The position numbers were made by a program, and so were the translations under genes. DNA of 64,000 nucleotides from a virus (taxonomy: Duplodnaviria; Caudoviricetes), in IMG/VR virus record IMGVR_UViG_3300033463_000056, positions 30,279 to 94,278 of that record, one strand, 5' to 3'. How positions within the stretch are numbered: the stretch's first letter is position 1; every line of letters begins with the position of its first letter. Below, piece by piece: positions 6,704 to 57,350 of this stretch. A model generated the notes under the pieces. That model was not told the DNA's origin and did no database searches. It saw only the letters and a list, made by a program, of their open reading frames with translations.

Positions 6704-6714
6704 ATCTTTCTATG

Positions 6715-9171
6715 TTATTTCTTTGTCGTAGATGACGTGCCTTTCATTCGGGCAATCTGTTTTTGAGCTTCGATTTTCTTGTACTCGATATCTTTCTTGT
6801 CTTTCCTTTCGTTTTCCTTTTCGTGTAACTCTCGATCAAACTGTCTGATTTGCTCAGCAAGTTTCTCTCTTTCGATATCAAGTTTTTCATGCACTAACTG
6901 CTCGTCGTTTTCCTCCGCATAGATACCGAGGCGGAGGTACTCGGCCTGGGAATTAATCTTCGCAACTTCAATCTTGGTTTCGTTGTCGCGCTGGTTGAGA
7001 ACATCCTTCTGCTGCATCTCCATCTGCTTCGCCTGCATATCAGCCTGGATTTTCTGCTGCTCAATCTGCTGTTGCTGCTGGGCGGCTTCCTGCTGCTGGG
7101 CCTGAATCTTCTTTTCAGAATCTTCAATAGCACGAATCTTTTCCTGCATCGAAAGCGAAGAATACATCTTCAAAAGCGTAGAGAACGGCATACCGTTCTG
7201 AGCCATAGCCTGACCGATGGTGTCAATCTGGGAATTCAGCTTCTGCGTATCCTGCGAGTTATCAACGACAAGACCATAATCGCATTCGCAGAATTCATCG
7301 CCATCAATCTCCATAATCTTTCGGGAATAATCCGAAAGGATATATTGGAACTTCTTGCTTCTTCCACGGAGTGCCGCCTTCGCATACTCAATAAAGCATT
7401 CGATAACTCGCTTCTTGGTATCGTCGTGCTTCTGGAACAGCCAGTCTGTGATATACGAAGACTGCAGGACAGCCCTTTCAATGCCGCCTACAGTCTCACG
7501 ATTGTATGTGTTTCCTTCCCGCTGGCGATTGATACCGACAAGATCCGACATCGCATCCTTCGTCCACTGAAGCAGATTCATGTAGTTCTGGATGGACTGT
7601 CCCCAGTCAGCATCGACATAGCCTTTGCTCGCATTATTCAGACCACCAGCCAGCTTTCCGGTAGCCGCACCCTTGTTTCCTTCATTGAACGAATCCTTGA
7701 TGAGAACCTTGTTGGCGCGGGCAAAATACATCCATTTCTCAACCTCCCAGTTCTTCGGCTTCATCGCAAGATCCATCTCGAGAAGCTTTCCCCAGTTGGT
7801 AGCGATAAGGTCAACAAGTTTCGCGTGGACGGCATCGTACATATAGTTGTACGGCTTCATCATATCCACGAGGGAATAAGGACGCGATTCGTTGAGGTTA
7901 TAGATGGTTCCGATAATACCGAAATGACATCTCGATGGATTGGAGATGCTGTTATGCTGGACAAGACAAGGACGCATCTGAACGTAGATGTGGTCGCCAA
8001 TCTTCGTACCTTCCCAAGCTTCGTTCACCCAAAGCGGAGTAGCTTCCTCGCCAGCCGCCTTATCGGGGATATAGGTCTCCGGGTAGAAGTCGAACACTTC
8101 CTCGCCGGTAACAGGGTCATAGGATTTGACCTTGAATATCTTTCTCTGGGACTTCCACCAGACGTGGATAACGCGGACATTGCCAGCCACATCATAAGGA
8201 AGAAGGTTCGTTCCGAACCCGCCGTTCAGTTCAGGGAACGCATCATATACATAATGGAGATTATCGCCGTTGATGTTGATTCCGTTCTCACCGACGAATG
8301 CGCCCTGCATGAAGGGATAGGCGTCGTTCACGCTGCCTTCAGGAAGTGTGGGTTCGGAGCCGCCGAATTCGGGAATCTCATCGGAGAGCCACTTGACATC
8401 TTTCGCGGAAAGATCATCATAATAGGTATCCAGAATCCTTCCACGGCTCCAGTAGTCCTCGTAGATGATGACATCGGCATCTTCGATACGGTTCGAATAA
8501 CCTGTTCCGAAAGCGCGAAGCTTGATAGGATTCGCCCTGTCAACAAACGGTTCGCCACCAACGATTCCGAGCATATAGATTTCCTGACCGACACAGGCGT
8601 CAACGAAACCGTCGTTGAACTTCTGTTTCCAGTTCTGCTCCTTGGAGTAATGATGGATAAGCTCATTTGCCCGTATCTCGCGCAGGTCCTGCCAGTTGTA
8701 GTTGTAATACTCCTGGGTTTCCTGCATCTGTTTCTGGGCCTGCTGGTCATCTATTCCAGCATCTTCGACGATGTTCTGGACAGTCTGGAAAAACTCCTGT
8801 TTCTTCTGTTCCTCAATCTGCGAAACGGAATAAGGATTGGTGACAATCACCTTCCAGTCAAACACGCGGGCTGCTTCCTCGCCACGAAGCGTGTTTATCT
8901 TGGAGTTCATTATCGGATAATGCTGGATCTTGTCCGGAATGAAAGCGGAAGCAATGTTGCCCGGATTCAAGACAGCCGCGATATCCTCCATGTGGATGAT
9001 GCCGTTCAGAAGGTCATAGTTGATCTTCAGGTTGACGGTACTCGTCCTTACCGGAGAATAGTTAAAATATGAACGCACGCATCCCCAGTCCACACACTTC
9101 TTACGCCAGGCATCTCCCTTCGATTTGAAGGGCAGCCTCTGGGCGGGGAACGTTGTCGTACTTAAATCCAT
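6715..9171 (-). CDS. portal protein (crAss-like)
   Basis: 818 aa, FPAQRLP..K...W start, IQHYPIMNSKIN.L.GEE, Q-rich C-terminal coiled coil, adjacent to terminase. Confidence 0.92.
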   Translation of the reverse strand: MDLSTTTFPAQRLPFKSKGDAWRKKCVDWGCVRSYFNYSPVRTSTVNLKINYDLLNGIIHMEDIAAVLNPGNIASAFIPDKIQHYPIMNSKINTLRGEEAARVFDWKVIVTNPYSVSQIEEQKKQEFFQTVQNIVEDAGIDDQQAQKQMQETQEYYNYNWQDLREIRANELIHHYSKEQNWKQKFNDGFVDACVGQEIYMLGIVGGEPFVDRANPIKLRAFGTGYSNRIEDADVIIYEDYWSRGRILDTYYDDLSAKDVKWLSDEIPEFGGSEPTLPEGSVNDAYPFMQGAFVGENGININGDNLHYVYDAFPELNGGFGTNLLPYDVAGNVRVIHVWWKSQRKIFKVKSYDPVTGEEVFDFYPETYIPDKAAGEEATPLWVNEAWEGTKIGDHIYVQMRPCLVQHNSISNPSRCHFGIIGTIYNLNESRPYSLVDMMKPYNYMYDAVHAKLVDLIATNWGKLLEMDLAMKPKNWEVEKWMYFARANKVLIKDSFNEGNKGAATGKLAGGLNNASKGYVDADWGQSIQNYMNLLQWTKDAMSDLVGINRQREGNTYNRETVGGIERAVLQSSYITDWLFQKHDDTKKRVIECFIEYAKAALRGRSKKFQYILSDYSRKIMEIDGDEFCECDYGLVVDNSQDTQKLNSQIDTIGQAMAQNGMPFSTLLKMYSSLSMQEKIRAIEDSEKKIQAQQQEAAQQQQQIEQQKIQADMQAKQMEMQQKDVLNQRDNETKIEVAKINSQAEYLRLGIYAEENDEQLVHEKLDIEREKLAEQIRQFDRELHEKENERKDKKDIEYKKIEAQKQIARMKGTSSTTKK

Positions 9172-9240
9172 AAATCTGCACAGTTTACATGGCGAATTTA
9201 TCTTTTAATCCACCACGAACTACGCAGATAAGCGAAACGC

Positions 9241-11517
9241 TTACTGGTCGAAAGTTGATTTATATTGAGGTCCTAACTTTTCGAGATGCCGCTTCCAATC
9301 CTTGTCGAAGAAATCGTCATCGGAATCATCCGGTTCGGTCTTCTGCACCTCATCGCCATCGCCGTATAGGATTTGATACTGATGACGATAAAGCATGACT
9401 TGCATAAGGGCGCTGACCCTATCCGTATTTGCGCCACCGCCATACGAAATCATTTCCTGAATCATGGCTCTGCTCCATAACCTATAAGCGCCAGGAACCA
9501 AAACAGTCTGTACTTCCCCATTTTCGTCAACCTGTTGTTCGACAGTTTCTTTCAAGAGCCAGTCGCGAATCAAATCCTGAGCGAAAGCGATAATGGCGGG
9601 TAGTGCCTGAACGCCCTTACTTGAAGAACCCGTAGTAGAATACTTCACCATCTCCCGCTCCTTAAGGTACTCTGGGCAGTCGGCGAGCATGTGTAATGAG
9701 TGTTTCTTCGCAAAATACGCATAAACATTTTTCTTGTTCGCCTCAGGCATACACTTAGCGTTATAGAAACGGCACATCAACCAAGCCATACGGCAGTTAT
9801 CCTCATTAAGCGGAAGCCGACCTGTATATTCGGCGACCGGAATATCCTGAAATAAGTCAAACATTACACAGGAAAATAACGATTCCGAATCTGCCTCTTC
9901 ATCATTTTCAACTGGGTCAATACCTAAAACGTATCTGTTCGGAGTGTTTTCGGTCCCGGGTGCAGGCATCTGGAAAATCTCCAATGCACCATGAACTCCA
10001 ATGGTATTCTTATGGTTCTTGTTTATCGGCCATTCACGAATTGGAATATCATTCGTCGTTATGAACTTCACACTACCGCCAGATTCGATAAGATTACCGA
10101 TATACATCTTATCATAAAAATGAGGAGACTGGTCTATCTGGCGCAGGCGTTCATTCAGCAAATCCGTCGGGAACAATCCACGGCGAACACGAAGAATTGC
10201 TTCTTCAGGGGTTATAGGACGCTGAGCTATGACACTAAGCAGTGTTTCTGGCTTCGACTTGCGAACACTGTTTCTATTATTCAAGATAGCAAGAATAGAC
10301 TTAATCACATCAGAATTGCCATCCTTATCCATGCATCCAGTGCGAGAAATATAAGAAGGAAAGAAATATCCGAACTTATCTCTACCCTTTCCGCTCATAT
10401 CATACACGTTCTCTATTGCATAGATTTCATATGCGTCCGGATCATACAGTATCTCCCTTGCTCCAGAGAAATCCGAATCCTTATCGCCGGCGGTTCCAAC
10501 GAGATATATCAGGGCGAACACTTCTTCACCATCCTTTACCGAGTCACGAGTATTATTATATGTGGCGAGTAGATTTTTGAACGAGCCCATTTCCTCAAAT
10601 AGGATAAATCCTCGTTTACCACGAACCTTCGCTTCGTCATCCTTGACGGCTACGCCCATAACAGAGTTTTTTGAACCATCGTTTACCCCATTTGAATTTA
10701 TCCTTCCGGCAATCCATAGCATATCGGACGGTCTATTGGTGCTGAGAAGACGAGGAAACTCCGTATTCGAAGCAACAAAATCCTTCATCTTGACAAATTT
10801 ATCAAGAGTACCATCTTTTTGGGAAAGATATTCTTTCGTATAACCGGCAAGAATCGTAGTAACTTCAGTCTTTGAAAACTCATTTTCACCAAGAACGAGA
10901 TTGTGTGACATTATCCCACCAAGAGTGTAAGATTTACCAGCTCCTCGACGAGCAAGTTCGATACAATGCTTATGTGCTTTGCGAGCTTGGTCTATATAAT
11001 GAAAACGATAGTAAACACCCTCCCAAAATAATGGGAATCCTGGTATCTGCGCAGATATTCCAGTCTTTGGGTCTTTCTTCGTAATCTTAATACGACAATA
11101 ATTCAGATACCAGTACATAAGTCCGGGTATCCATTCGCCGTCAGATTCCCTTACATAACCTTCCCTGCATCGTTTCGCTTCCTCCATAATCCATTTGCCA
11201 TACTCGCTTCGCGGATTCGGATTCGGTTTAAGAAAAGTATAGCAACCATTCTCCTCATAGAATTTTGCAGCTGGACGGAAGAAATCCGTATTCTCGAGGA
11301 TGTGTGGATGGGCAATATCGACTATAATCTTACCATCTCCGTCTCTCGGCAGGTCTTTCGCTTTGGGCCTATCTGGAGAAATCATCCATTGCAGGAGTGG
11401 GACATTATTCATAAAATCCAAAAATTGCTCCCTGACCCAAGGGTCGAGAGAAGCAATTAAGGATTCCGTAACCGGAGTTTGGAATTGATTAGTTGGTATA
11501 AAAACAGTGTCAGTCAT
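9241..11517 (-). CDS. terL: terminase large subunit
   Basis: Walker A ARRGAGKS, Walker B ILFEEMG, coupling motif GTAG, nuclease LGIDP ... DRVSA. Confidence 0.95.
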   Translation of the reverse strand: MTDTVFIPTNQFQTPVTESLIASLDPWVREQFLDFMNNVPLLQWMISPDRPKAKDLPRDGDGKIIVDIAHPHILENTDFFRPAAKFYEENGCYTFLKPNPNPRSEYGKWIMEEAKRCREGYVRESDGEWIPGLMYWYLNYCRIKITKKDPKTGISAQIPGFPLFWEGVYYRFHYIDQARKAHKHCIELARRGAGKSYTLGGIMSHNLVLGENEFSKTEVTTILAGYTKEYLSQKDGTLDKFVKMKDFVASNTEFPRLLSTNRPSDMLWIAGRINSNGVNDGSKNSVMGVAVKDDEAKVRGKRGFILFEEMGSFKNLLATYNNTRDSVKDGEEVFALIYLVGTAGDKDSDFSGAREILYDPDAYEIYAIENVYDMSGKGRDKFGYFFPSYISRTGCMDKDGNSDVIKSILAILNNRNSVRKSKPETLLSVIAQRPITPEEAILRVRRGLFPTDLLNERLRQIDQSPHFYDKMYIGNLIESGGSVKFITTNDIPIREWPINKNHKNTIGVHGALEIFQMPAPGTENTPNRYVLGIDPVENDEEADSESLFSCVMFDLFQDIPVAEYTGRLPLNEDNCRMAWLMCRFYNAKCMPEANKKNVYAYFAKKHSLHMLADCPEYLKEREMVKYSTTGSSSKGVQALPAIIAFAQDLIRDWLLKETVEQQVDENGEVQTVLVPGAYRLWSRAMIQEMISYGGGANTDRVSALMQVMLYRHQYQILYGDGDEVQKTEPDDSDDDFFDKDWKRHLEKLGPQYKSTFDQ

Positions 11518-15124: not shown

Positions 15125-15535
15125 TTACAAGGTATGCGGATAACTCTGCCTGCAACCAAATTCACAGACAACATCTATCAGAGCCCTGACCGAATCACCG
15201 GATATATATGCCGGTATCTCTGAATCAAGACGAACGCCCAAGGATTTCGCTATCGCATCAGCAAGATGTCTTATTTCGTGGGTAAGACTATCCTGGAATT
15301 CTGCACCTGAAGTTGTTGGACCGATAAGAACGACAGCCCTTCGTTTGTTCTGGTTAGTATAAGTAAAACCGCAATTATAGTCGCATGACAGCATCAGATC
15401 CTCCGCTTGTTCCATGATATAATCCGGTGCATAAGCGTCGTAAAGGCAAGCCAATACTCCATCAATATCATATCGCTTTGTCGCAAAAAGGAAATCGACT
15501 GTCCAACGCCCGATGGCAATGACACGGTGAATCAT
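15125..15535 (-). CDS. hypothetical protein with HExxH motif
   Basis: THEIRH...E..AY; possible zinc peptidase fold. Confidence 0.55.
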   Translation of the reverse strand: MIHRVIAIGRWTVDFLFATKRYDIDGVLACLYDAYAPDYIMEQAEDLMLSCDYNCGFTYTNQNKRRAVVLIGPTTSGAEFQDSLTHEIRHLADAIAKSLGVRLDSEIPAYISGDSVRALIDVVCEFGCRQSYPHTL

Positions 15536-15591
15536 ATTCGTATATTTTTATTATATTTGTATTATAAAAACCATTTAATAGAAACGCTATT

Positions 15592-16491
15592 ATGAATGAC
15601 AATTCCTATAAAATCTTTCGTGTTAACGAACACGAATACAAGGTGTTCTCAAATGGAGACATCGTATCATTGCCATATAACACAAAAGGTTGCGTAATCG
15701 GACTAACGAAAGAGAGAATGATTAAACCATTTATTGATAAAAATGGGTATACGAACGTAGAACTTGGTGGCATAACATACAAAATGCACTATCTTATAGC
15801 GTCATTATTCATCGATAACCCGAATAACGCTCCGCGAGTTATACATATTGACGGCGACAAATCAAACAACGCTGCCTCAAATCTTAAATGGTCAGATAGT
15901 ATCTCTAAAAATCAATCATCACTACCGATACCTAATTATTCTTTCTCATTAGCGGATTTACAAGATGAAGAGTGGAAAGCCATTTCAAATACCAATAATC
16001 ATTACTTCATAAGCTCATATGGAAGGGTAAAATCATGTCATAAAAGAACAATAATTCTTTCCCCAAAAATCAATTCATATGGCTACGCCAAAATTGCAAT
16101 CGTTAAAAATGGCAAGCGAGTTGACATCGCAATACATAGGCTCGTCGCATCAGAATTTATTGGCGACTGTAACGGATACGAAATTGATCATGTTGATGGA
16201 AATAGATTAAATAACAATATGAACAATTTGCGCATCGTTACACATACGCAAAACATGAACAACCCGCTTACCACAATTCAACTAAAAAAGCGGAAAGGAC
16301 CAATGACGGGACGACTCGGCAAGACAAACCATTTATCCAAACCAATATATGCAGTTAGCGATTCCGGAGAAATTCTCGAGTTTGAAGGAAGCTGGGACGC
16401 CAACAGAAAAGGATACAATTACAGCTCTGTTCAAGCGTGCCTTCACGGAAGGCAAAAAACATATAAAGGATTAAAATGGTTTTTTAGATAA
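15592..16491 (+). mobile_element. free-standing homing endonuclease with tandem NUMOD4-HNH units
   Basis: Two NUMOD4+HNH units (HIDGDKSNN..SNL; DHVDGNRLNN..NNL) and a C-terminal NUMOD1-like tail; AT-rich; antisense to neighbours. Confidence 0.9.
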
Positions 16492-16885
16492 GGTCGCTCC
16501 AGATAATCGGAATACCCTTTCCATTGCAGTCTGCAAGGAACCTGTCAAATACTATCCCGTCGTAGCCGTCTTTGTCGTCAATAGTATCCTTGACATAAAT
16601 GAGAGCGTGCATCTCATCAACCACAGAGCTGCCGAGATAATCGCTAACGCACATGTGAAACGAAAATACCGCATCGTAACCTTTGTCATTTTTCAATTCA
16701 ATCCCTCTGGAACGAAACAAAGAATCAATTTGCTCCTTTGAACGCATAGGCACTTTGTTCCCATTCATATCTCTCATGTTCGAAACAGCCCATTCGCACA
16801 TCTTGCGAGAAAAATGATGTCCGTAGTTCGAGAGATATGCATCCATTCCTTCCGGAAGAATATCGTAGTAATCCATTCTTGTCAT
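16484..16885 (-). CDS. conserved Bacteroidales phage protein
   Basis: P.GM.AYLS.YG.HFS.KMCEWAVS.M ... IIWSD pattern. Confidence 0.7.
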   Translation of the reverse strand: MTRMDYYDILPEGMDAYLSNYGHHFSRKMCEWAVSNMRDMNGNKVPMRSKEQIDSLFRSRGIELKNDKGYDAVFSFHMCVSDYLGSSVVDEMHALIYVKDTIDDKDGYDGIVFDRFLADCNGKGIPIIWSDLI

Positions 16886-16898
16886 AGCAATAAAGATT

Positions 16899-16920
16899 AG
16901 GGGCGAGTTTCCCCGCCCCA
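16899..16920 (-). terminator. GC hairpin, probable terminator
   Basis: GGGGCG...CGCCCC inverted repeat between genes. Confidence 0.5.
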
Positions 16921-16925
16921 GTTAA

Positions 16926-17132
16926 TTACATACGACGACGATAAGACTTGCGTTCACGAGGTTCATCCCACTCTTCGCGGTCATCGCGCTCGTCATAGCT
17001 GTACTTATCTTCCATTTCCTCGGACAGTTCGCAGAGCATCTCGATGCCTTTCTTCGCCATCTTCAGGGCTTTCTTGTATTCGTAGAGATCATCGCCTCCA
17101 CGCTTCATGATATGTACAATACCCATAGCCAA
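16926..17132 (-). CDS. small charged hypothetical protein
   Basis: 68-aa ORF within the operon. Confidence 0.6.
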   Translation of the reverse strand: MAMGIVHIMKRGGDDLYEYKKALKMAKKGIEMLCELSEEMEDKYSYDERDDREEWDEPRERKSYRRRM

Positions 17133-17137
17133 TCCTC

Positions 17138-17941
17138 CTAACCGTTAGAAGTTGTAGAAGCGGAAGAAGTGCGGGTCAGTGCAGTCACCTGACTGAACAG
17201 CGGAGCAAGATACGCTTCGAGCTGCGCAGTCTGTGCGGCGTTGTCAGCCTGATTGCGGAGCTGAGTGATGATATCGCCCTGCGTGTTAATCTTGTCCTGC
17301 ATATCGCGCTCGCGTGCAGCACAGAACTCAGAGATGGTAGTGGTCTTCAGGTCTGCGATAGCGTCCACGATACGCTGGTTACCAGAAGTGATAGCGCCGG
17401 TCAGAGCATTGGTCTGCTCGATAGTACGAATCTGATTCTGATAACCCTGTTCGGTGACAAGCTGTTTCATAGAGCAGCAGCATTCACACAATTTACTCTG
17501 CATAGCTGCGTTTCCGCTTTCGATAGCATTTACAATCTGCAGGGAAGACATACCGGTCTGGGTGGAAAGATTCGCGATACCGTCACGGATACCCTGGACA
17601 CCAGCATTGACGAGATTGAAGTCCTGACCAAGCATGGTAGCAAGATTCTGAACAGCAGAACGGGAAGCTTCGCCGTTGGAGTTGATAGCAGCCATCAGAA
17701 GGTCACGACCATTGTCATTGTTGATCTGGTTGGAAAGGAAACCGGCACCACCGGCGTTACCTCCGCCGAAGCCGCCATAACCTCCCCAGCCATTGCCGAA
17801 GAACAGACCGAGAAGGAATCCGAGGACACCTCCACCGAGTCCACCCCAGTTACCACCGAAGCCGCCATTGTTCATAGCAGCCATCCAAGCGGGAACAGTC
17901 CCGCCGTTGTTTTCTGGATAGAAAAAAGTTTCGTTAGCCAT
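17138..17941 (-). CDS. Gly-rich membrane/coiled-coil phage protein
   Basis: GGFGG-rich N-terminus with TM, LCECCC motif, coiled-coil C-terminus; TAATTTTG promoter element upstream. Confidence 0.75.
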   Translation of the reverse strand: MANETFFYPENNGGTVPAWMAAMNNGGFGGNWGGLGGGVLGFLLGLFFGNGWGGYGGFGGGNAGGAGFLSNQINNDNGRDLLMAAINSNGEASRSAVQNLATMLGQDFNLVNAGVQGIRDGIANLSTQTGMSSLQIVNAIESGNAAMQSKLCECCCSMKQLVTEQGYQNQIRTIEQTNALTGAITSGNQRIVDAIADLKTTTISEFCAARERDMQDKINTQGDIITQLRNQADNAAQTAQLEAYLAPLFSQVTALTRTSSASTTSNG

Positions 17942-19526: not shown

Positions 19527-19817
19527 TTATTTTATAAACAGCAACGCGATGTTACCGATAATCCAGTAAAGCAGGTTATGATACCATCTCAATTCGTAGT
19601 TCAAGTCGCAGTCGGCGGTCTTGTCACGACGGATATGGAGGGAATAGGCCAATGTATGTGTGGCCCACTCCCTCTTGATTGAACCCTCGCTCCGATGCCA
19701 AAGGCGACAAGTCGGATGCAAGGCGCGTATCGAACTCAACTCCCGCGAATACTTTGCCTTGGGAATGAGGTAGGAATCGATAATCTTTACCCTATCTCCG
19801 AGAATCTTGTATCTCAT
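19527..19817 (-). CDS. hypothetical protein
   Basis: 96-aa ORF with C-terminal TM. Confidence 0.55.
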   Translation of the reverse strand: MRYKILGDRVKIIDSYLIPKAKYSRELSSIRALHPTCRLWHRSEGSIKREWATHTLAYSLHIRRDKTADCDLNYELRWYHNLLYWIIGNIALLFIK

Positions 19818-20200
19818 GCCACAAGCAAGTCAAGTAGGTAGAATATTACAAGGCACAATGCGAAGAACCCGACATAGATGCCGACATACTTGAAGACTTT
19901 CTTCCAAGTCACATGTTCCTTGATGTAGCGGAAATCATCCTTGATGCCCTCCACGAACCACCGTTTGCCATACTTGTCTTTGTAATCGTCAACCCAATGG
20001 TAGGCAATCTGTCCGAGCGAGAAGGTAAACACCTCCAGAATGACGGTCACGAACGCCCATCCGAAGATGCACTTCATTACATGACCGAAAACGCTCATCC
20101 CTGCCTCAATGGGGGAATAGATGCCGACGAACACGAAAACGATGGCAGACACTACTGCGGTCAACGCAAAGGCCCGCTTCATAAATTTGAACTTGTCCAT
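19814..20200 (-). CDS. membrane protein
   Basis: Three hydrophobic segments. Confidence 0.6.
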   Translation of the reverse strand: MDKFKFMKRAFALTAVVSAIVFVFVGIYSPIEAGMSVFGHVMKCIFGWAFVTVILEVFTFSLGQIAYHWVDDYKDKYGKRWFVEGIKDDFRYIKEHVTWKKVFKYVGIYVGFFALCLVIFYLLDLLVA

Positions 20201-20225: not shown

Positions 20226-20978
20226 TTAAGTTGGTATCGTCCCGTCCTCGTTCAGTTCGTATATCTTACTTGCATAGTCGCTCCATTTTGCCGTCGATTT
20301 GTATGCCGCTAAAATAGAGTGGTCGGAGGAATATGGGACATATATCTTTTTCTTCCCGCTACCACTCCCCGCGAATGTATTTGTTGCCGGAAGATTTGGC
20401 GGTGATGTCCGTCTAACGACGACATTCCCAAGGTTGGACGTATCGTAGAATGATGCATTTGCGATGCTCGTCACCTTGCTGGGGATTTCAATGGAGATAA
20501 GCGCCGAGCATTGGCGGAAGGTGCTGTCGTTTATCGTCGTAAGGTTTGGAGGAAGGGTTATGCTCCGCAAGGCCGTACAGCCCCGGAACGGGGAGTTGGG
20601 GAGCGTCTTTACGCCCGTGAAATATACAAATTCATCAAACGACGTTATTGCCGTGTTATAGCGGAAATTAGTCCCGATCGAAGTGACTGCGGCAGCCTGG
20701 CTTGGTTTCAGCCCGATCCCGTCACCCCACTTTGTCGCACATATCTGCTCGACGGTGGCGTCTGCGAACACAATGTACGGTTCCGGCACCCCTTCCTGAT
20801 TCACCGTCAATTGGCGTATTATACTCCCCGTTGCGAACGTAACAACCTTTGTCCGGGTTGTGTAACCCGTGTTTGCATCGGAGGTGACGGCCACGGTCTG
20901 GTCGCCCTCCGATGCGTTGCGGGTGAGGTAGATGTTGTCTCCGGACCCGTCCCCCCAGGGTATGGTCGTAACAGCCAT
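20226..20978 (-). CDS. BACON-like domain plus BspA-type leucine-rich-repeat protein
   Basis: IPW.DGSGDNI N-terminus; FRGCTALRSITLP.NLT.I...F..C..L.SI.IP.KVTSI LRRs. Confidence 0.85.
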   Translation of the reverse strand: MAVTTIPWGDGSGDNIYLTRNASEGDQTVAVTSDANTGYTTRTKVVTFATGSIIRQLTVNQEGVPEPYIVFADATVEQICATKWGDGIGLKPSQAAAVTSIGTNFRYNTAITSFDEFVYFTGVKTLPNSPFRGCTALRSITLPPNLTTINDSTFRQCSALISIEIPSKVTSIANASFYDTSNLGNVVVRRTSPPNLPATNTFAGSGSGKKKIYVPYSSDHSILAAYKSTAKWSDYASKIYELNEDGTIPT

Positions 20979-21284
20979 TTAGGAGATCGTCCAGTTGGTG
21001 TTGGAGGAGACGGAGACACTTTGAGCCGGAGTACCAGCAGCAGGAATCGTGATAGTGGTCGGGCTGATGGTGAGGTAAGCGTCGCCAGCGGCTTGGGTAA
21101 TCGCGCAAACGACGGCATCGGAACTACCGCTATTCGGCGTAACCGTCAATTGGCTTGTCTTGGAAGAAATCGTTGTATTCTCGGCTATGTTCGAGAACGT
21201 GATAGAGAATGTGTATTGTTGGGTAGCGCCGGGGTCTCCCGTAATGGCCGAGCCGATGTAGGTGATGATTTCTCCTATTTCCAT
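20979..21284 (-). pseudogene. 3' part of a BACON-like tail protein gene, with a new start
   Basis: GDPGATQQYTFSITF...SVSSNTNWTIS; candidate 5' part stranded at 25256-25327. Confidence 0.55.
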
Positions 21285-21338
21285 GGTATTTGTTCTTTAT
21301 GTGGGGGCCCGGAGGCCCCCTGGTCCTGATCTGCTAAG

Positions 21339-21366
21339 TCAGTCAATTAGGGCCGAAAGTGGGTTA
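21339..21366 (-). repeat. cassette site A (28 bp)
   Basis: TAACCCACTT-TCGGCCCT-AATTGACTGA on the minus strand. Confidence 0.75.
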
Positions 21367-21531
21367 CTTCTTCGTGGTTGTATAAGTTGGCGTGGAAAGT
21401 GGCTTGAACATCTTACAATGCGTTCCACAATTCCGTATATCACACCCGGCAAGGCAACCCTTTTCGTAGTCATACGGGATGCCGTTGTTATCCGTTACCA
21501 CCCTTCCGAAGAAGTGTTTGCAGTTTATCAT
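21364..21531 (-). CDS. Cys-rich 55-aa cassette ORF
   Basis: Hand translation MINCKHFFGRVVTDNNGIPYDYEKGCLAGCDIRNCGTHCKMFKPLSTPTYTTTKK; fills the space between sites B and A. Confidence 0.65.
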   Translation of the reverse strand: MINCKHFFGRVVTDNNGIPYDYEKGCLAGCDIRNCGTHCKMFKPLSTPTYTTTKK

Positions 21532-21533
21532 AG

Positions 21534-21561
21534 TCATTCAATTAGGGCCGAAATTGATTGA
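21534..21561 (-). repeat. cassette site B (28 bp, near-perfect inverted arms)
   Basis: TCAATCAATT-TCGGCCCT-AATTGAATGA; arms 9/10 complementary. Confidence 0.8.
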
Positions 21562-21562
21562 G

Positions 21563-23005
21563 TTATGCCATTACGGAATCCATATAGGCGATTCTCTGCG
21601 TCACCCAATCGGCGATGATGGCGATTGAATCTATATCTCGGTTATCACCGATATATCCGGGGCAATCCGGCCACCTGGAGGCGTTCCGTTTATAGGCATC
21701 AAAACCTACCCACTTCGCCCATTCATCAAACAGGCCGATGATGTTCTCCGGGGTGAAGATACCGATGGACTGCAACTCCTTGTACCGAGCCTTGATTTCA
21801 TCCGCATAGATGCTTTCAAGTGCGACAAACCACGGCATAGACCGGGCCTTCTGGTTGTAGGTGTTGCTTGTTGGCGGATAGTACGGGGTGTAAATGCCGG
21901 AAGTCTTTCCACCGAATCCGTTGAACGAGTTGTTCATATCGTACACCATAGGCGAGAAATGAATCCCGTCCCAAGTGCCGTACAGGGTGTTTCTTGACCA
22001 CGAATCCCACACATTACATACATACATCATAAGATAGCAGTCAATGAAATCCTGGATGTTCAGCAACCCTTCAATGGTAGATTTCGGAGTGGATGCGGTG
22101 ATGCCCCACAGGGCGGTCTCCCAATTCACGATGGCGGTCTTGACCGGGCCATCATTCGGCTCTACACCCTCCGGGAATGACGGGTTTCCACTATCGGATT
22201 TCGGGTTGCGGATTTCAACACCCGTCCAGGAGAACGCACCACTATTGGAAAACCAATTCTGTGCGTCAAGGAAGATGTGGTCGGTGTCGCTCTTGTTGAA
22301 CTGATAATTGTCGCGGTGTTTCTTCAACCGCCACACATACAACCCCCAATAGACACCGTTGATGTAGAGTTCAATGGGGAAACCGTCCACCCGGCACAAT
22401 GCGTTTCCTCCGAAGAATCCCCGGTAGTTGCCTCCGAAATCGTTGTGGAACAGGAACGGTCTTTCCTCCGTTGCCTTGCGTGTCATATAAATCTGCTCCA
22501 TCATTTGGTTGCAGACCCAATCCCGGCACTTGATGAAGTCCTCATAAAATGCCTTGAGATGGAACGAATCAAACTCCAACCACTTGCCGAACTTGTGCTT
22601 GTTGGCGGTGTCAATGCCGAAGTTCTTTTGTGCATCGGCGAGAGATGTATTGCCTTGATAGTTGATTTCTATCCTGTCCGTGAAGTTGATGGACTGCGAT
22701 GAAAATTCAAGGATTACATCGTCCGTGTCCACACTACCAACAGGGTCTCCTGCTGCGTATGGGTTTGTGGTGTAGGTCAATGGGGCAACCGTGTTGTTGG
22801 TTGCGTCCGGGGTCAGCAGTTCCGAAACGATGTTCACCTTCGGGACATCGGTTGGAAGTCCGAAGTCCATCGCCCTCCGGGTTGTCCCCGACCCGACCCC
22901 GGCAAGGATTTCTTCAAGAGTTCTTCCGTTCCCGTCAATGACGGCCTTCGTGGAAGTCCTCGGATATACGGGATTCTCGTTCCCGTCTTGGTATTGTACT
23001 ATCAT
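21563..23005 (-). CDS. CotH kinase-like protein in the tail module
   Basis: QGNTSL...KNF.I, FHLKAFY.D, GFPIELYINGVYWGLY, DSW.RN, PMVYDMN.SF motifs. Confidence 0.8.
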   Translation of the reverse strand: MIVQYQDGNENPVYPRTSTKAVIDGNGRTLEEILAGVGSGTTRRAMDFGLPTDVPKVNIVSELLTPDATNNTVAPLTYTTNPYAAGDPVGSVDTDDVILEFSSQSINFTDRIEINYQGNTSLADAQKNFGIDTANKHKFGKWLEFDSFHLKAFYEDFIKCRDWVCNQMMEQIYMTRKATEERPFLFHNDFGGNYRGFFGGNALCRVDGFPIELYINGVYWGLYVWRLKKHRDNYQFNKSDTDHIFLDAQNWFSNSGAFSWTGVEIRNPKSDSGNPSFPEGVEPNDGPVKTAIVNWETALWGITASTPKSTIEGLLNIQDFIDCYLMMYVCNVWDSWSRNTLYGTWDGIHFSPMVYDMNNSFNGFGGKTSGIYTPYYPPTSNTYNQKARSMPWFVALESIYADEIKARYKELQSIGIFTPENIIGLFDEWAKWVGFDAYKRNASRWPDCPGYIGDNRDIDSIAIIADWVTQRIAYMDSVMA

Positions 23006-23008
23006 AGT

Positions 23009-24028
23009 TTACGCAATTACACTGAATGAACCAAGCCCGTCTGCGTGGGAGTTCCCGTAGAACTTTTGTCCCACCTTGTCCCAAAGGCCGTTCTCCCCGG
23101 CAAGGTGTGCATTACCGTCCCAAGCAGAAGTCCCAGGAATGTCGGAAACGAGAGTGCAGGGAACGAGTTTCATAACCGTCTCACTACCTACAATGATTTC
23201 ATATCCATGGAGTGTCATGTTTAGGGCAAGATAGCCTGCAGCACTTCCTCCTGCAAATAGGTGGATTGGCCTATCCGGGTCAGTTGCGTAGAAAGTCCCA
23301 AAATCATAAGGGAAGAAAATAGATTCGTCCCTGTCGGTTACGAAACCGGACATCGAAATTTCTTGTTTATATCTAACTCCGGTTGTCAGTTGGGTTGTTG
23401 ATGCTGCACCGACACCCGTGTCTGATGTTGTATCGCTACCGCCAAAACGAACTGCCTGTTTTGGCGTTGCTGCGGTTGTTACGATGGTGAGCATGTGCCT
23501 CGTTGTAGGATAGGACTCTCCACGATATGAGCCCCAAATATAACGATAAGTCGGGGTGGCAGTCGCAGTCGGGAGGGTATTGACAACATAGTCATACTTG
23601 ATTTTCGTGTTACGATTGCTCACAACATACCCGGTGTTGATTCTCGCCACACCATCGCCGACAAGTCCGGACTTTTCCTCATACACCATTCCATAGGAAA
23701 CGGTTACCGTCTTTTCTGCATAGATATTGCTATCTGCTGTGGAAGTGGCACGAATGACAACAGAATTTGAAAATGCCCCGACAAGAGGGGAAAGTTCCCC
23801 GGTTTCCGCATTGATTGATGCGTATGTGCCGCCGGAAACGATAGACCAAACGATGCCCCGTTGCGAAGTGTTCGCAGGGAAATAGTTCACCTGGTAATAG
23901 GACGGCTCGGTGATTGAGTCCTCCCCGATTATAGTGATGGAACGGACGGGAACACCGTCTTGAAGTGTTACCTTTCCAAGATTTGCATCTTGAAAACTGA
24001 CATTGGGAATAATAACTGCGATACCCAT
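23009..24028 (-). CDS. tail-fibre partner protein (Ig-like plus lectin-like domain)
   Basis: MGIAVII.N.SF N-terminus; PANTSQRGIVWSI Big_2-like unit; INTGY...LVPC...GLWD.V..KFY. Confidence 0.7.
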   Translation of the reverse strand: MGIAVIIPNVSFQDANLGKVTLQDGVPVRSITIIGEDSITEPSYYQVNYFPANTSQRGIVWSIVSGGTYASINAETGELSPLVGAFSNSVVIRATSTADSNIYAEKTVTVSYGMVYEEKSGLVGDGVARINTGYVVSNRNTKIKYDYVVNTLPTATATPTYRYIWGSYRGESYPTTRHMLTIVTTAATPKQAVRFGGSDTTSDTGVGAASTTQLTTGVRYKQEISMSGFVTDRDESIFFPYDFGTFYATDPDRPIHLFAGGSAAGYLALNMTLHGYEIIVGSETVMKLVPCTLVSDIPGTSAWDGNAHLAGENGLWDKVGQKFYGNSHADGLGSFSVIA

Positions 24029-24040
24029 AGTTGTATGATT

Positions 24041-25243
24041 TTATTCGTTGATAACTTCTGCCTTGAAGATGTTCTTCGCCCTCGCACCGTCATTGTCCAC
24101 GATGAAACCGATATTGAGGTTTTCATCCACAACCGCGAATCCGTCCTCGTTGGTGTTCACGAAGGAATCTCCAAAGAATCCGGCCTCCAGGAGCGCCTGG
24201 ACAAAGTGTGCAGACACCTTCGCCGCGTCAAATCCGTCTGCGGTATATTTCATCACCACATTCAGCAGTTCATCGGTAAGGAAGAATCCGTCCGGGACGG
24301 TGGCAGGAAGAAGCGCGGCCATATCGTCGTACACTTGATGGATTTTTCCCTCAAGCACGACACCCTGCTGGGCGGACAGTCCCTTGGTCGGATCGTTCGT
24401 CGTGAGGTTGTTGACGAGCTCGTAGGGATAGTCCACGGAGCTGCCCGTGTTGCCCTGCATACCCTGCGGGATCGTGACGTTCAGGACGGGGGCCTCCGGG
24501 ATGCCAGTGATCGTCACCACGACGGGCGTTCCAGGCTCGCCGGTGGTCACGGTGCCGACCGTGATGTTGGGAGTCGCACCCACCAGGCCTTTCGGGATGG
24601 ACAGGTTCAGCACGGGAGCTTCCGGGGTGCCGGTCATGGAGGCGGCGGCAGGGGTGCTTGGATCTCCGGTTGTGACGGTGCCGATGGTAATGTCGGGAGT
24701 TTCACCTGTTTCCCCCTTCAAGGAAGCAAGCCATTGCTCTTCCGTACCCTCGTATCCTTCGTCAACTGCAACCTGGTATGCGGACTTTCCCTGCGGGCCG
24801 GTCTCGCCTTGGGGACCTGTCGCACCCGTCGCGCCCTGCGGACCTTGCGGGCCTTGCGGGCCAGTTGCACCCGTCGCGCCCGGCGCACCAGCAGTTCCAT
24901 CGGCTCCCTTTAACCCGGAGAAATTCAAATAAAGCGTATCATTTTCAATCTGCTGTGATGCCGAAGGTGTTCCGCTTGTGTTATCAACACTGATTTCAAT
25001 ATACGAAAACCCAGAACCAGGGATTCCTTGCTGTCCTTGTTCACCACGCTCAAGAGAAAGAGCCCATATATTTGGATCCGTTCCGGGCCTCACGTTCTTA
25101 TTCGGCTTCTTGGACACATACGAACATCCGTCGCCACCATCTTCAGTAGCATTCAGAACGAGGCATAAGGCGTCGTACTCCGTACCGTGAACATATTTTC
25201 CACACGGCGTAATAGCGACCTTGTATAATTTTGTATCAGTCAT
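24041..25243 (-). CDS. tail fibre/receptor-binding protein, copy 2
   Basis: Collagen repeats, GKSAYQVA, TVTTG.P repeats; N-terminus and GNTGSSVDYPYELVNN shared with 26186-28243. Confidence 0.85.
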   Translation of the reverse strand: MTDTKLYKVAITPCGKYVHGTEYDALCLVLNATEDGGDGCSYVSKKPNKNVRPGTDPNIWALSLERGEQGQQGIPGSGFSYIEISVDNTSGTPSASQQIENDTLYLNFSGLKGADGTAGAPGATGATGPQGPQGPQGATGATGPQGETGPQGKSAYQVAVDEGYEGTEEQWLASLKGETGETPDITIGTVTTGDPSTPAAASMTGTPEAPVLNLSIPKGLVGATPNITVGTVTTGEPGTPVVVTITGIPEAPVLNVTIPQGMQGNTGSSVDYPYELVNNLTTNDPTKGLSAQQGVVLEGKIHQVYDDMAALLPATVPDGFFLTDELLNVVMKYTADGFDAAKVSAHFVQALLEAGFFGDSFVNTNEDGFAVVDENLNIGFIVDNDGARAKNIFKAEVINE

Positions 25244-25255
25244 ATTACGAAATCG

Positions 25256-25327
25256 TTAAATATCCGGTACGGTATCGTTACCATTACCGCTCGTTTTGTT
25301 GGGATTTGCCCATGATGCGTATGCCAT
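25256..25327 (-). pseudogene. stranded 5' end of a BACON-like gene
   Basis: MAYASWANPNKTSGNGNDTV joined to a copy of the 3' end of the 28245 gene. Confidence 0.55.
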
Positions 25328-51142: not shown

Positions 51143-52168
51143 ATGAAGCACTCATTAAGAGATTATTCACTCAATCTTCCTGAGCAGGAGTATCACGACC
51201 TTCCATACTGGTCGTATTCTACGATTGCAAAGTATGCCCGTAATGGATTCTCTGCTATCGCTACGCTTCACGATAAGATTAAACCGACCCCGGAGATGGA
51301 ATTCGGTTCCTTGTTCGACAGCTTCATCACGAAGGGGAAGAAGACCTTGGAGGAGTACGCCGTCGTGGATTTCACCGTTCCACCCGCAGAGAAGGGCGTT
51401 CTGGATGTCCTTGCGGCTACTTCCTCCTATACGCATTTCGATGAGGTCCCGATGTATGATGTCATCAATGCCGCGGAGACGGTCAGTTATCAGCCCAAGT
51501 GGAAGCCGGATACGAGATACAGCCATATCTGCGAATACGCGAAATACTACGATACTGTCAAGTCCGGCAAGAAGCTCGTTTCCAAGCAGGACTGGGACGA
51601 TGCGATGGAGATGTATCGGGTTTTCCGCAACGACGCTTACCTGAAGAATATTTTCGGCGCGAAGGATACGGATGAAGTTGAGTTCATCTATCAGGCGCAG
51701 TTCAAGGTCAATGTCTGGATTGAAGCTGAGAATGTGACGGTGAAGATTATGCCAGATCTCATCATCGTCAATCATACGAACAGGACCATCCAGCTTGTCG
51801 ACCTAAAGACCAGCACGATGCCGGGGTATGATTTCGCCGAGCATTTCGTCAAGATGCGGTATGATATCCAGGGCGAGCTTTATACCGAGGTCATGAAGAT
51901 GATTGCGTATGCTGACGAGGAGTATATGGATTACACCTTCCTTCCGTATCTGTTCGTGGATATCTCCAGGGTCGACAAGGTTCCTGTTACATACGAGATC
52001 GACCTGTCCAACGGTTTCTCCTTCTCCAAGGGCGAGAAAGTGTATGAGTATAAGGGCTGGAAGGACCTGCTGGCGGAGATCCTTGTCTACGAAGCTAACG
52101 AGTCCAAGGTTCCTGATTATATCACCACTACTGGTCCGAATGATTTGATTGAAATCCTCGGAAGATGA
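51143..52168 (+). CDS. PD-(D/E)XK exonuclease (RecE/DUF3799-like)
   Basis: YH....SYS, FGSLFD, KIMPD...VDLKT...YDIQ..LY. Confidence 0.85.
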   Translation: MKHSLRDYSLNLPEQEYHDLPYWSYSTIAKYARNGFSAIATLHDKIKPTPEMEFGSLFDSFITKGKKTLEEYAVVDFTVPPAEKGVLDVLAATSSYTHFDEVPMYDVINAAETVSYQPKWKPDTRYSHICEYAKYYDTVKSGKKLVSKQDWDDAMEMYRVFRNDAYLKNIFGAKDTDEVEFIYQAQFKVNVWIEAENVTVKIMPDLIIVNHTNRTIQLVDLKTSTMPGYDFAEHFVKMRYDIQGELYTEVMKMIAYADEEYMDYTFLPYLFVDISRVDKVPVTYEIDLSNGFSFSKGEKVYEYKGWKDLLAEILVYEANESKVPDYITTTGPNDLIEILGR

Positions 52169-53980: not shown

Positions 53981-54007
53981 TCATTTTTTACCCTAATTGA
54001 TTGAATT

Positions 54008-54199
54008 ATGTGGATTAACGCAAAAGCAGAATTGCCCGAAAAGGAAGGATGGTATTTCGTATGCTCCAACGATATGGGAACACCAACCTCGCTTGGAATT
54101 TCGTATTGGGATGCCATCCTTGACAAGTGGCTTGATGTAGAAGGCGATGAGGACACGGGTATTGACTATTGGATGCCCGTCCCTCCTATCGTGGATTAA
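54008..54199 (+). CDS. DUF551-like cassette ORF
   Basis: MWINAK.ELPEK...YWMPVPP. Confidence 0.75.
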   Translation: MWINAKAELPEKEGWYFVCSNDMGTPTSLGISYWDAILDKWLDVEGDEDTGIDYWMPVPPIVD

Positions 54200-54222
54200 A
54201 TCCGGCCCTAATTGATTGAGAT

Positions 54223-54393
54223 ATGTATAGAATCGAATCACGCTATCCGTGCTATTACGGGTGTATTCCCGTCACGGGATATTTCGTTCAACGATTGCAA
54301 GAAGGTTTTTTGTTTGACAAGTGGGTGGATATTAAAGGGTTTGATAGTTATAAGAAAGCAAAAGAACTTCTTGACATCTTGAAAGGTAGATAA
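54223..54393 (+). CDS. 56-aa cassette ORF
   Basis: Hand translation MYRIESRYPCYYGCIPVTGYFVQRLQEGFLFDKWVDIKGFDSYKKAKELLDILKGR. Confidence 0.7.
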   Translation: MYRIESRYPCYYGCIPVTGYFVQRLQEGFLFDKWVDIKGFDSYKKAKELLDILKGR

Positions 54394-54416
54394 TTCCGGC
54401 CCTAATTCGCTGACTT

Positions 54417-54632
54417 ATGACTTGGTTATTGTCGCGTATATTTCCGCATTATTGGGAAGTGAGTTCTTTCGGACAGACTCCCGTTTGGAAAACTCATTTC
54501 CTAACAAAGAAGGAAGCATACGAATATGCAAATACGCATAAGGGTTGCGTTGTGGATTATTACATCAACGCAAGACCGTGGTATTTGATAAGAGTGTCTA
54601 AAGAACACAAAGCATTTTATCCAATTCGCTGA
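54417..54632 (+). CDS. 71-aa cassette ORF
   Basis: Between sites E and F; its TGA is the end of the F right arm. Confidence 0.65.
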   Translation: MTWLLSRIFPHYWEVSSFGQTPVWKTHFLTKKEAYEYANTHKGCVVDYYINARPWYLIRVSKEHKAFYPIR

Positions 54633-55683: not shown

Positions 55684-55880
55684 CGCTTGAAGAATCCATC
55701 TACACGCTGATGCGAAAGATGGACGGGAATACGAAACTTGTCGTTCCACTTCAACACTGGGCGCTGGTAAGAAATTACGCTGGACAGCTGCAAAGGGACT
55801 TCGATGCAAAGTACGAGGTACACAGGATGAAGACAAGGAATATGAAATACGACCTTATCTTGATAACACGAAGTCAATAA
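55665..55880 (+). CDS. small basic protein (recombination directionality factor candidate)
   Basis: Convergent on and overlapping the integrase 3' end; function inferred from position only. Confidence 0.45.
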   Translation: MEKKELTLEESIYTLMRKMDGNTKLVVPLQHWALVRNYAGQLQRDFDAKYEVHRMKTRNMKYDLILITRSQ

Positions 55881-57072: not shown

Positions 57073-57100
57073 TTGATTCTCTTTTCGCAAAGAAAAACAA

Positions 57101-57350
57101 TCTGCAATCAATCTGCAAGTTTTTCTGCAAACGGGCACAGAAGGCTGAAAGATTGACGAAAAATAAGAAAATCTTGGCAACCAAGTAACAAGATTGTTTC
57201 ATTACCTGATTGCCAAGACATTACAAGGTGGAGATAGTCGGATTCGAACCGGCGACCCCATGCTTGCAAAGCATGAGATAAACGACAATAACAATTTAAT
57301 AACCAAGCAGATACAAAATCTTTGGATTTATTCTGCAAATAAATCTGCAA
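57101..57350. other. attP: tRNA-Ala(TGC) 3'-half core with TCTGCAA arm-type repeats
   Basis: Minus strand 57275-57227 CATGC TTTGCAA GCATG GGGTC GCCGG TTCGAAT CCGAC TATCTCC ACC; TCTGCAA at 57101, 57112, 57124 and 57332, 57344. Confidence 0.85.

Follow-up and report, generated by a model that had tools for sequence, protein, structure and literature searches.

The promoter-early stem-loop (PeSL) elements of T4-type phages are mobile regulatory cassettes (Arbiol et al., 2010, PMC2839356; Comeau et al., 2014, PMC4122927) and, judging by sequence comparison, they seem to be the closest known system to the element described here. This element was found in a 64,000-nucleotide (nt) stretch of DNA (the window) that covers positions 30,279 to 94,278 of the Caudoviricetes genome IMGVR_UViG_3300033463_000056 (G000; 94,278 bp, 46% GC). 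Two sequences on its minus strand, site B (21561–21534) and site A (21366–21339), bracket an open reading frame (ORF) of 55 amino acids (aa) behind a CotH-like gene, and both are copies of a portable, sense-oriented gene-junction linker of ca. 30–40 nt. PeSLs and the linker are both short, conserved and non-coding, are placed beside small dispensable ORFs of hyperplastic regions, and the linker, like PeSLs, probably acts as a point of homologous exchange that yields insertions, deletions and replacements between phages; the linker flanks small accessory ORFs in variable regions, and the indels and replacements seen between phages end within it. The end-type version of the linker has in addition a stable stem-loop alongside, as PeSLs do. 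On the other hand, a PeSL contains a promoter and a terminator, whereas the linker contains three staggered stops and no promoter. Unlike PeSLs, the linker bounds fibre-cluster genes and spans phages with unrelated core genes (32–98 kb, 46–61% GC). Finally, PeSL mini-circles arise by recombination between neighbouring copies, while the linker is known here solely from the assembled sequences on which all comparisons rest.

The linker fails the defining features of integron attC/IntI systems, Xer/dif sites, stoperators and the targets of diversity-generating retroelements (DGR), although it has something in common with several of them. Conserved boundary or linker sequences reportedly lie at the mosaic junctions of lambdoid phages, and these too are short conserved gene-boundary sequences that join unrelated modules, presumably by homologous recombination. 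In contrast to them, the linker is one nearly invariant sequence with a three-frame stop and restart logic, reused many times per genome and across lineages. With integrons it shares promoterless single-ORF cassettes in one orientation, a repeated site and a variable number of cassettes at a fixed position. However, an integron has an IntI-type integrase, attI and Pc, none of which is present here, the sole integrase (55855–57180; domains Arm-DNA-bind_5, SAM-like and Phage_integrase) being 32 kb from A and B. Furthermore, attC is a long imperfect palindrome (57–141 nt) that folds as a hairpin, whereas the linker has 28–40 nt and lacks it, and each half of the linker goes with the gene next to it, which is what simple homologous exchange would produce and differs from the integron. 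Xer/dif sites (those of IMEX and pdif modules) have a copy in the host chromosome and an 11-6-11 layout with conserved arms; for the linker no host chromosomal copy was found in 596 Gb of GTDB species representatives. The stoperators reportedly present in cluster A mycobacteriophages (L5 type) resemble the linker in being asymmetric, oriented with transcription in both arms and often overlapping with stop codons, but they come in many copies genome-wide together with a co-varying repressor, while the linker has few copies, at variable loci, and no conserved cognate repressor. As for DGRs, which have a template repeat (TR) and a reverse transcriptase at the 3′ end of receptor-binding genes, a repeat search found no pair resembling TR and variable repeat (VR) near 21–23 kb, and there was no reverse transcriptase among the ORFs scanned, a scan that covered part of the ORFs.

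A sense-oriented linker with three staggered stops

The linker follows the stop of the upstream gene with (A)CTT, YCGGCCC and TAA-N-TGA-N-TGA, after which there is either an ATG 2–3 nt further on or a hairpin. Site B (TCAATCAATT-TCGGCCCT-AATTGAATGA) has an internal-type linker of a rare A flavour (AATTGAATGA) and is quasi-palindromic (9/10 arm positions). Site A (TAACCCACTT-TCGGCCCT-AATTGACTGA) has an end-type (C-flavour) linker that is followed by CTTA. The order along the minus strand is CotH-like gene, B, 55-aa ORF, A, hairpin, A-rich leader and a 101-aa ORF. Site B begins 1 nt past the TAA of the CotH-like gene (21565–21563), the ATG of the 55-aa ORF (21531) is found 2 nt past site B, and the first triplet of site A is the TAA of this same ORF (21366–21364). 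A sequence-only reading of the window had already described both sites, with their arms, their spacer, the ATG behind B and the stop codon inside A, and its description was exact to the base. It had also compared this unit with a cassette array in the early region (sites C, D and E, 53982..54419, plus strand), which has the same linker, sense oriented to that operon, and here too we agree: the A-to-B distance is 195 nt and the units of the array measure 215 and 194 nt in the same layout, while the spacer of A and B (TCGGCCCT) differs from that of D and E (CCGGCCCT) by one base.

A position weight matrix (PWM) trained solely on the sites of other phages (maximum 47.7 bits, cut-off 8 bits) found only six sites in the whole 94,278-bp genome, compared with 0–1 in each of 20 shuffles. 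These were A (45.1 bits), D (39.6), E (34.0), B (26.7), C (23.0) and, as the sixth, the reverse strand of B. Minus-strand genes occupy the first ~34 kb, and plus-strand genes the part between 34.6 and 59 kb. The inverted orientation of A and B relative to sites C–G, correctly seen in the sequence-only reading, thus reflects gene direction alone, because each site is sense oriented to its own transcription unit. The inversion of 32.5 kb that had been proposed on those grounds finds no support, as the orientation is explained in this way and G011, a sibling genome, is collinear. An exchange of A/B with D/E is topologically possible and would leave every gene-linker-gene joint sense oriented.

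For the search in other genomes we used a core of 16 specified bases (CGGCCCTAATTGANTGA). There were 52 matches in IMG/VR, in 41 stretches of 37 contigs, against six for the same pattern read backwards, i.e., a ca. ninefold excess of the true motif. Among the GTDB species representatives (596 Gb) there were 36 matches, of which 34 lacked the extended motif and came from unrelated taxa, so a host dif/Xer site was discarded. The remaining two were small contigs, with phage-type context, of one ruminal Cryptobacteroides metagenome-assembled genome (MAG), and it is partly on the title of this MAG that the label “rumen” for the motif-bearing phages rests. No host chromosomal copy of the linker was found in these 596 Gb, and it appears to be a phage feature rather than a host chromosomal site. 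A literature search with the motif string returned unrelated primers only. The junction statistics given below omit eight matches in a different type of region (L006, L008, L015, L018, L022, L043 and L044), which is non-coding, rich in repeats and C runs, present in phages of ~36 kb and looks like an origin or iteron region; in L044 (1890–2010) two motif-like sequences in inverted orientation flank a 35-nt centre of GGAACAATG repeats.

The sites come in two flavours. GATTGA followed by (G/A)(A/T)T-ATG is found between small ORFs, the ATG being nearly always 3 nt past the last stop, and GACTGA followed by CTTA is found after long ORFs (444–1173 aa). Seven of the ten long ORFs that precede sites of the latter flavour have fibre hallmarks such as the phage fibre repeat, collagen repeats or a tail-tip domain, and some of them have a GDSL or S9-type esterase at their end. 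All sites are sense oriented to the flanking genes, and within a record they are clustered and on one strand. With TAA-N-TGA-N-TGA no frame stays open, and every one of the stops ends some real upstream ORF. In variant sites (TAATTAGATGA, TAACTGACTAA, TAAATGATTGA and TAATTGACTAA) TGA, TAA and TAG are swapped but the stop-N-stop-N-stop arrangement is kept, with the two N positions varying freely, as would be expected if the staggered stops themselves were selected. The left half is more variable. When the search was anchored on the right half plus ATG, CGG preceded CCC in 19 of 28 cases and AAC, CAC, CGC and others in the rest, and the CGGCCC “spacer” is swapped for AACCCC, TTACCC and others while the right half is kept. 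Each half segregates with the gene on its own side, upstream for the left and downstream for the right. The sequences upstream of the sites are mutually unrelated, and the comparison of 57 distinct sites gave one pair with similarity on both sides, while in two pairs it was limited to the upstream side and in three to the downstream side.

Evidence of exchange at fibre-cluster ends

The 55-aa ORF (21364..21531, minus strand; an in-frame alternative ATG at 21537 would yield 57 aa) is a Cys/His-rich gene forming a single-gene cassette. That it is a real gene is indicated by conserved homologues, by the bias in codon positions and by an identical copy elsewhere. The homologues have 85, 79 and 76% identity, with C4, H6, C26, C35, H38 and C39 invariant, and the differences from the most distant of them (L047, 76%) are distributed as 13/4/22 over codon positions 1/2/3. 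We found no match to the protein in Pfam, PHROG or Atlas and no relative in IMG/VR, and a model made with AlphaFold2 from four sequences of the family was unusable (pLDDT, the predicted local distance difference test, 45).

The clearest case is the 3.3-kb metagenome contig L046, in which the ORF is present with 168/168 nt identity. The match to the window extends over 209 nt (99%), beginning within B at the CCC of the core and ending at the last base of A, and the cassette carries the right half of B, A flavour included. The surroundings are different: upstream there is a different long gene (at least 437 aa), which has a polysaccharide deacetylase domain in place of CotH, and on the downstream side the site has a right half of internal flavour, after which another cassette is found rather than the hairpin. 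The whole contig is a patchwork whose successive cassettes match G000, G006/L014, L033, L035/L040, G008/L031 and L007/L028. Blocks that meet at a linker overlap inside the linker only, although one junction (~1650) has no linker. The cassette thus occurs in a second context with homology ending inside the sites, and it is mobile.

A further homologue, that of L047, is located behind a GDSL-type gene of at least 588 aa, and the joints around it are short AACCCCAA-ATG sequences and no full linkers. In this contig (1780–2121) the homologue is fused in frame to the next small ORF (113 aa in total), and after the fused ORF there is a variant linker (TTTAACCCCTAATTGACTGACTT) and then a Bacteroidota-type promoter. 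The cassette gene is therefore found behind three different enzyme-tipped genes (CotH, polysaccharide deacetylase and GDSL), which suggests either a fibre-related role or that the position is simply a hot spot.

We surveyed the ORFs of at least 300 aa in ten complete or partial genomes and found the linker just past the stop of seven of 164. All seven are read as the last large gene of a fibre cluster, on the basis of their domains and of their position next to fibre-family genes, and the long genes upstream of the linker have different tips (CotH, GDSL, S9-type esterase, polysaccharide deacetylase). In these other phages the site is thus the 3′ boundary of variable receptor-binding or fibre-cluster genes, as the sequence-only reading had suggested, and modules ending at the site were found both with and without a cassette. 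Among the empty alleles, L030/G001 has a 1173-aa GDSL fibre, one site, 7 nt, an identical hairpin and a leader, after which come a small protein with two apparent transmembrane segments and a DUF5675 protein. Another, L039, has a 1058-aa collagen fibre, one site, 64 nt and a hairpin, and the gene after this hairpin starts with MDFGEF, where the 101-aa ORF of the window starts with MEIGEI. The alleles of G004 and G005 are also empty. Occupied alleles are that of the window, with one linker-bounded cassette; that of G003/L021, with a 1110-aa Metallophos gene, a 51-aa ORF, a variant site, an unrelated 43-aa cassette and an end-type site, then tandem repeats and the hairpin; that of G008, with five sites (four cassettes) after the fibre gene; and that of L046, with at least six sites. 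The tandem repeats of L021 (2330–2420, equal to G003) contain ACTGCG with a period of ~10–11 nt and fill the 82 nt from linker to hairpin.

The 32-kb genome G008 (IMGVR_UViG_3300031993_000398) adds a different kind of evidence. It is purged of GGCC (13 sites against ~104 expected), in what looks like strong restriction avoidance, and all 13 fall within 6649–9954, a segment that comprises the cassette array and part of the fibre gene (7866–10760); five of them are in linkers. This island ends in the terminal end-type site. From this composition, the segment 6649–9954 seems to have been imported recently, with the linker at its 3′ edge.

End-type sites are frequently followed by a characteristic hairpin. 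In the window it is located 18 nt past site A (21303..21320, minus strand; GGGGGCC-UCCG-GGCCCCC, with a tetraloop of the cUNCGg type) and is followed by an A-rich leader (21285–21302). An identical cUCCGg hairpin was found after C-type sites in eight contexts and a variant one pair longer in a ninth. Altogether, a GC-rich hairpin is found within 110 nt past 11 of the 48 C-type sites, nine of these being cUCCGg or its variant, and past none of the 38 internal (T-type) sites. The hairpin mostly precedes a small hydrophobic, holin-like protein, with at least five unrelated sequences. It has no U tract and was not called as a terminator, and Rfam gave no match in 20900–21800. The location of the hairpin after end-type sites and ahead of small hydrophobic proteins suggests that the composite of linker and hairpin marks the boundary between the fibre cluster and lysis-like genes, the lysis identity being a prediction from sequence. 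A 128-aa ORF of the window (19814–20200, minus strand) has a homologue in G003 that lies directly 3′ of the cUCCGg hairpin and whose N-terminal part is hydrophobic. The ORF of the window may be the native holin-like gene of this phage, which BACON/LRR genes now keep apart from the fibre cluster.

Mechanism and alternative explanations

We consider that homologous exchange at a PeSL-like stop-restart linker is the probable explanation of these patterns, though we hold it with moderate confidence, and we infer every mechanistic step that goes beyond the comparison of sequences. The linker sits, sense oriented, at the 3′ ends of the most exchangeable genes, which are small accessory genes and the gene that closes the fibre or receptor-binding cluster, in rumen-type Bacteroidales phages that mostly have an integrase. 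On the mRNA it would shut all three frames behind any upstream gene and place the next start codon in an AU-rich context, and this combination of three-frame stop and restart would let any two genes be joined. At the DNA level, the invariant 13–25 nt of the linker could serve as a homology patch at which homologous recombination between co-infecting or resident phages would join unrelated segments, as PeSLs do, perhaps with the help of phage recombination functions such as a RecE-like exonuclease. Exchange of this kind would add, remove or replace single-gene cassettes and fibre-end genes. The sequence would persist for being useful on the mRNA, and also since cassettes with intact linkers would spread more. 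In agreement with this, the linker is the meeting point of independently assorting segments and the number of cassettes at the fibre end varies. Junctions are also found at the conserved hairpin and leader and at points without the motif, as expected of general, not site-specific, recombination.

Several points weigh against this explanation. A stretch of 17–25 nt is nearly invariant across phages with unrelated core genes and 46–61% GC, which exceeds what a stop and restart would need and hints at a sequence-specific reader. The complementarity of the arms (5.2 of 10 positions, against 2.7 in control flanks) is as in a recombinase site or another dimer site, and the left part (ACTT-YCGGCCC) is given no role. 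The homologue of L047 has lost both linkers, so the linker is dispensable for expression in place. The support for exchange, finally, comes entirely from assemblies.

That the sites are a chance similarity, or a local duplication of no wider meaning, can be given practically no weight. Short AT-rich words do recur, and an 11-mer with two mismatches is at chance level, but the full site is highly significant both within the genome and across collections, and the conserved flanks and the position at a gene junction recur in dozens of unrelated contexts; the PWM scan, the IMG/VR counts and this recurring junction context refute the idea. An unlikely explanation, if one to be kept in mind, is that the linker is purely an expression signal, a stop-restart or RNA-processing element accompanied by a hairpin that acts in transcript ending or attenuation. 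Selection would then keep the linker, and mosaic boundaries would coincide with it merely since it sits between genes. The invariable sense orientation, the fixed 2–3 nt from stop to ATG, the preservation of three staggered stops in the variants and a hairpin of RNA type ahead of small membrane-protein genes are all in its favour. Yet the sites are confined to variable loci, with six in 94 kb and none between core genes, the collinear G011 expresses its late genes with no such site in that region, and there are no linkers around the same gene in L047; moreover, homology blocks overlap exactly in the linker and the imported island of G008 ends there. It is very unlikely that the sites are stoperator-like, i.e., bound at gene ends by a prophage repressor that blocks read-through in lysogens. 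They are sense oriented in both divergent arms and overlap stop codons, most motif-bearing phages have an integrase, and a CI-like repressor (HTH_3 + S24) is present in eight of ten. However, the site is invariant whereas these repressors are only 21–54% identical (one pair 72%), none of that repressor family turned up in G000, and the sites, of which there are few, occur solely at the ends of cassettes and fibres.

Another alternative is a dedicated site-specific system, a sort of “phage integron” in which a 10-8-10 site would be cut by a specific phage or host recombinase or nuclease and circular single-gene cassettes inserted or excised at fibre-gene ends. This we regard as distinctly unlikely. 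Direct repeats do surround single promoterless ORFs, the arms are partly complementary as said above (most of all in B), the motif is far more conserved than its surroundings, and tyrosine integrases are the most widely shared family (nine of ten motif-bearing genomes), often a few kb from the arrays. Nevertheless, these integrases are only 22–34% identical between lineages (63–90% in the few closely related pairs), that of the window has the arm-binding architecture of the lambda type, and in G005, which does have the site, no integrase passed the threshold. The complementarity of the arms may partly reflect a TAA at a preferred distance, the CGGCCC “spacer” can be replaced while the right half stays, host chromosomes have no site and junctions also fall off-site. 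Dedicated site-specific recombination is therefore not supported, given the lack of a shared conserved recombinase, the weak dyad symmetry and the missing host copy. To a broader version, in which the linker would be the recognition site of some sequence-specific activity, supplied by the rumen Bacteroidales host or by a small protein of the phage, we give a similarly low, and no higher, likelihood. If true, it would amount to an integrase-independent “phage integron” that moves receptor-binding tips and single genes between unrelated lineages, with a built-in three-frame stop ensuring the correct expression of each insertion.

Other roles were tried and rejected. A promoter scan of 20800–21800 found none at A or B, there is no room for one because the ATG is 2–3 nt past the linker, and no Bacteroidota-type TTTG...TAnnTTTG pattern was seen by eye in the motif. 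A restriction-site (GGCC) role of the core was discarded as a general explanation, since other bases can take the place of the GC core and avoidance of GGCC was limited to G008 and, in mild form, G000. An RNA hairpin borne by the linker was likewise discarded, as in the fold of 21270–21575 only B forms a hairpin centred on the motif.

Phage host range is set by the tips of fibre genes. The transfer of these tips and of accessory genes between unrelated phages has mostly been inferred from mosaic patterns. In many rumen phages, a single short and recognizable sequence lies at the 3′ seam of both fibre-cluster genes and single-gene cassettes, and the direct evidence of exchange at it consists of an identical cassette in another context, empty and occupied alleles and an import island ending at the site. 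The linker could be used as a searchable marker for exchangeable modules in uncultivated Bacteroidales phages; its three-frame stop and restart make it a natural “universal adaptor”, and two 30-nt linkers around a reporter would be a simple system to test junction-driven modular exchange. The new elements are the cassette in a foreign context, the series of empty and occupied alleles behind fibre genes, the end-type flavour and the hairpin paired with it, the island of G008, the lack of a conserved reader and the passenger status of A and B described below.

A captured fibre module in this genome

In this genome the linker does not bound the module in which it is found. A and B belong to a second fibre module of ~4 kb (21255..25267, minus strand) that was captured and runs from a fibre gene (24041–25243) through a partner gene (23009–24028), the CotH-like gene, B, the cassette, A and the hairpin to a holin-like start. 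The CotH-like gene (21563..23005, minus strand; 480 aa; Pfam CotH, 2.4e-20; phrog_27151, 1.4e-30) is the last large gene of the module. Its protein has no IMG/VR relative by peptide patterns. A comparison with the INPHARED phages gave collagen-repeat matches only. The downstream breakpoint is located in the 101-aa ORF (20979..21284, minus strand), which is chimeric, with ~13 holin-like codons and a BACON-like C-terminal half. Its start, together with the leader and hairpin, matches the L039 type at 82% nt identity, while residues 14–101 (21254–20982) match residues 114–202 of the 202-aa BACON-like protein of G007 (59%). Codons 1–20 of the same BACON-like gene are left orphan at 25268..25327 (minus strand; 75% by tblastn to residues 1–20 of the G007 protein). 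A BACON-like gene split into two parts 4 kb apart indicates that the module was inserted into it, deleting codons 21–113, and the breakpoints are outside the linker. The view of the site as a module boundary, which stood for other phages, thus does not apply to the 4-kb module itself.

The fibre gene of the module is 66–71% identical to those of three records of 21–41 kb (G001, G004 and G005), which are of the lineage type where a fibre gene is as a rule followed by linker, hairpin and a small membrane gene. Breakpoints off the linker, together with this donor-type order, indicate that A and B are the native 3′ end of the donor module, passengers inherited with it and not the sites of the last event, although they could still support exchange. 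Site A, the cUCCGg hairpin and the A-rich leader would then be the native boundary between fibre cluster and lysis genes in the donor lineage, and the 4-kb module would have entered the BACON-like gene by an illegitimate event. The other motif-bearing phages (32–65 kb, 51–61% GC) are unrelated to G000 in core genes and share with it only fibre domains, a small block (15125–17941) and a divergent integrase. The sibling G011 (98.6 kb, with direct terminal repeats) is collinear with G000 throughout at 45–90% protein identity. Its early array contains a single linker, whereas its late region has none and no counterpart of the 4-kb module.

Other features of the genome

A free-standing homing-endonuclease gene of the HNH/NUMOD4 type (I-HmuI-like; 15592–16491, plus strand) lies on the opposite strand to its neighbours, between a DUF7841 gene (16484–16885) and a 136-aa gene (15125–15535). 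These two are 7 nt apart in G011, which indicates that the endonuclease gene is an insertion in this phage. A role for it as the enzyme of the site is not supported, the insertion being absent from G011 and a genome being presumably unlikely to keep its own cleavage sites. A RecE-like PD-(D/E)XK exonuclease (51143–52168, plus strand; phrog_412, 1.3e-19; DUF3799) is encoded 2 kb upstream of the early array. Several palindromes of 4 nt are strongly avoided in this genome, CTAG above all (8 against 75 expected), followed by GATC (0.29 of expectation), ACGT (0.31), CATG (0.35) and GGCC (0.54).

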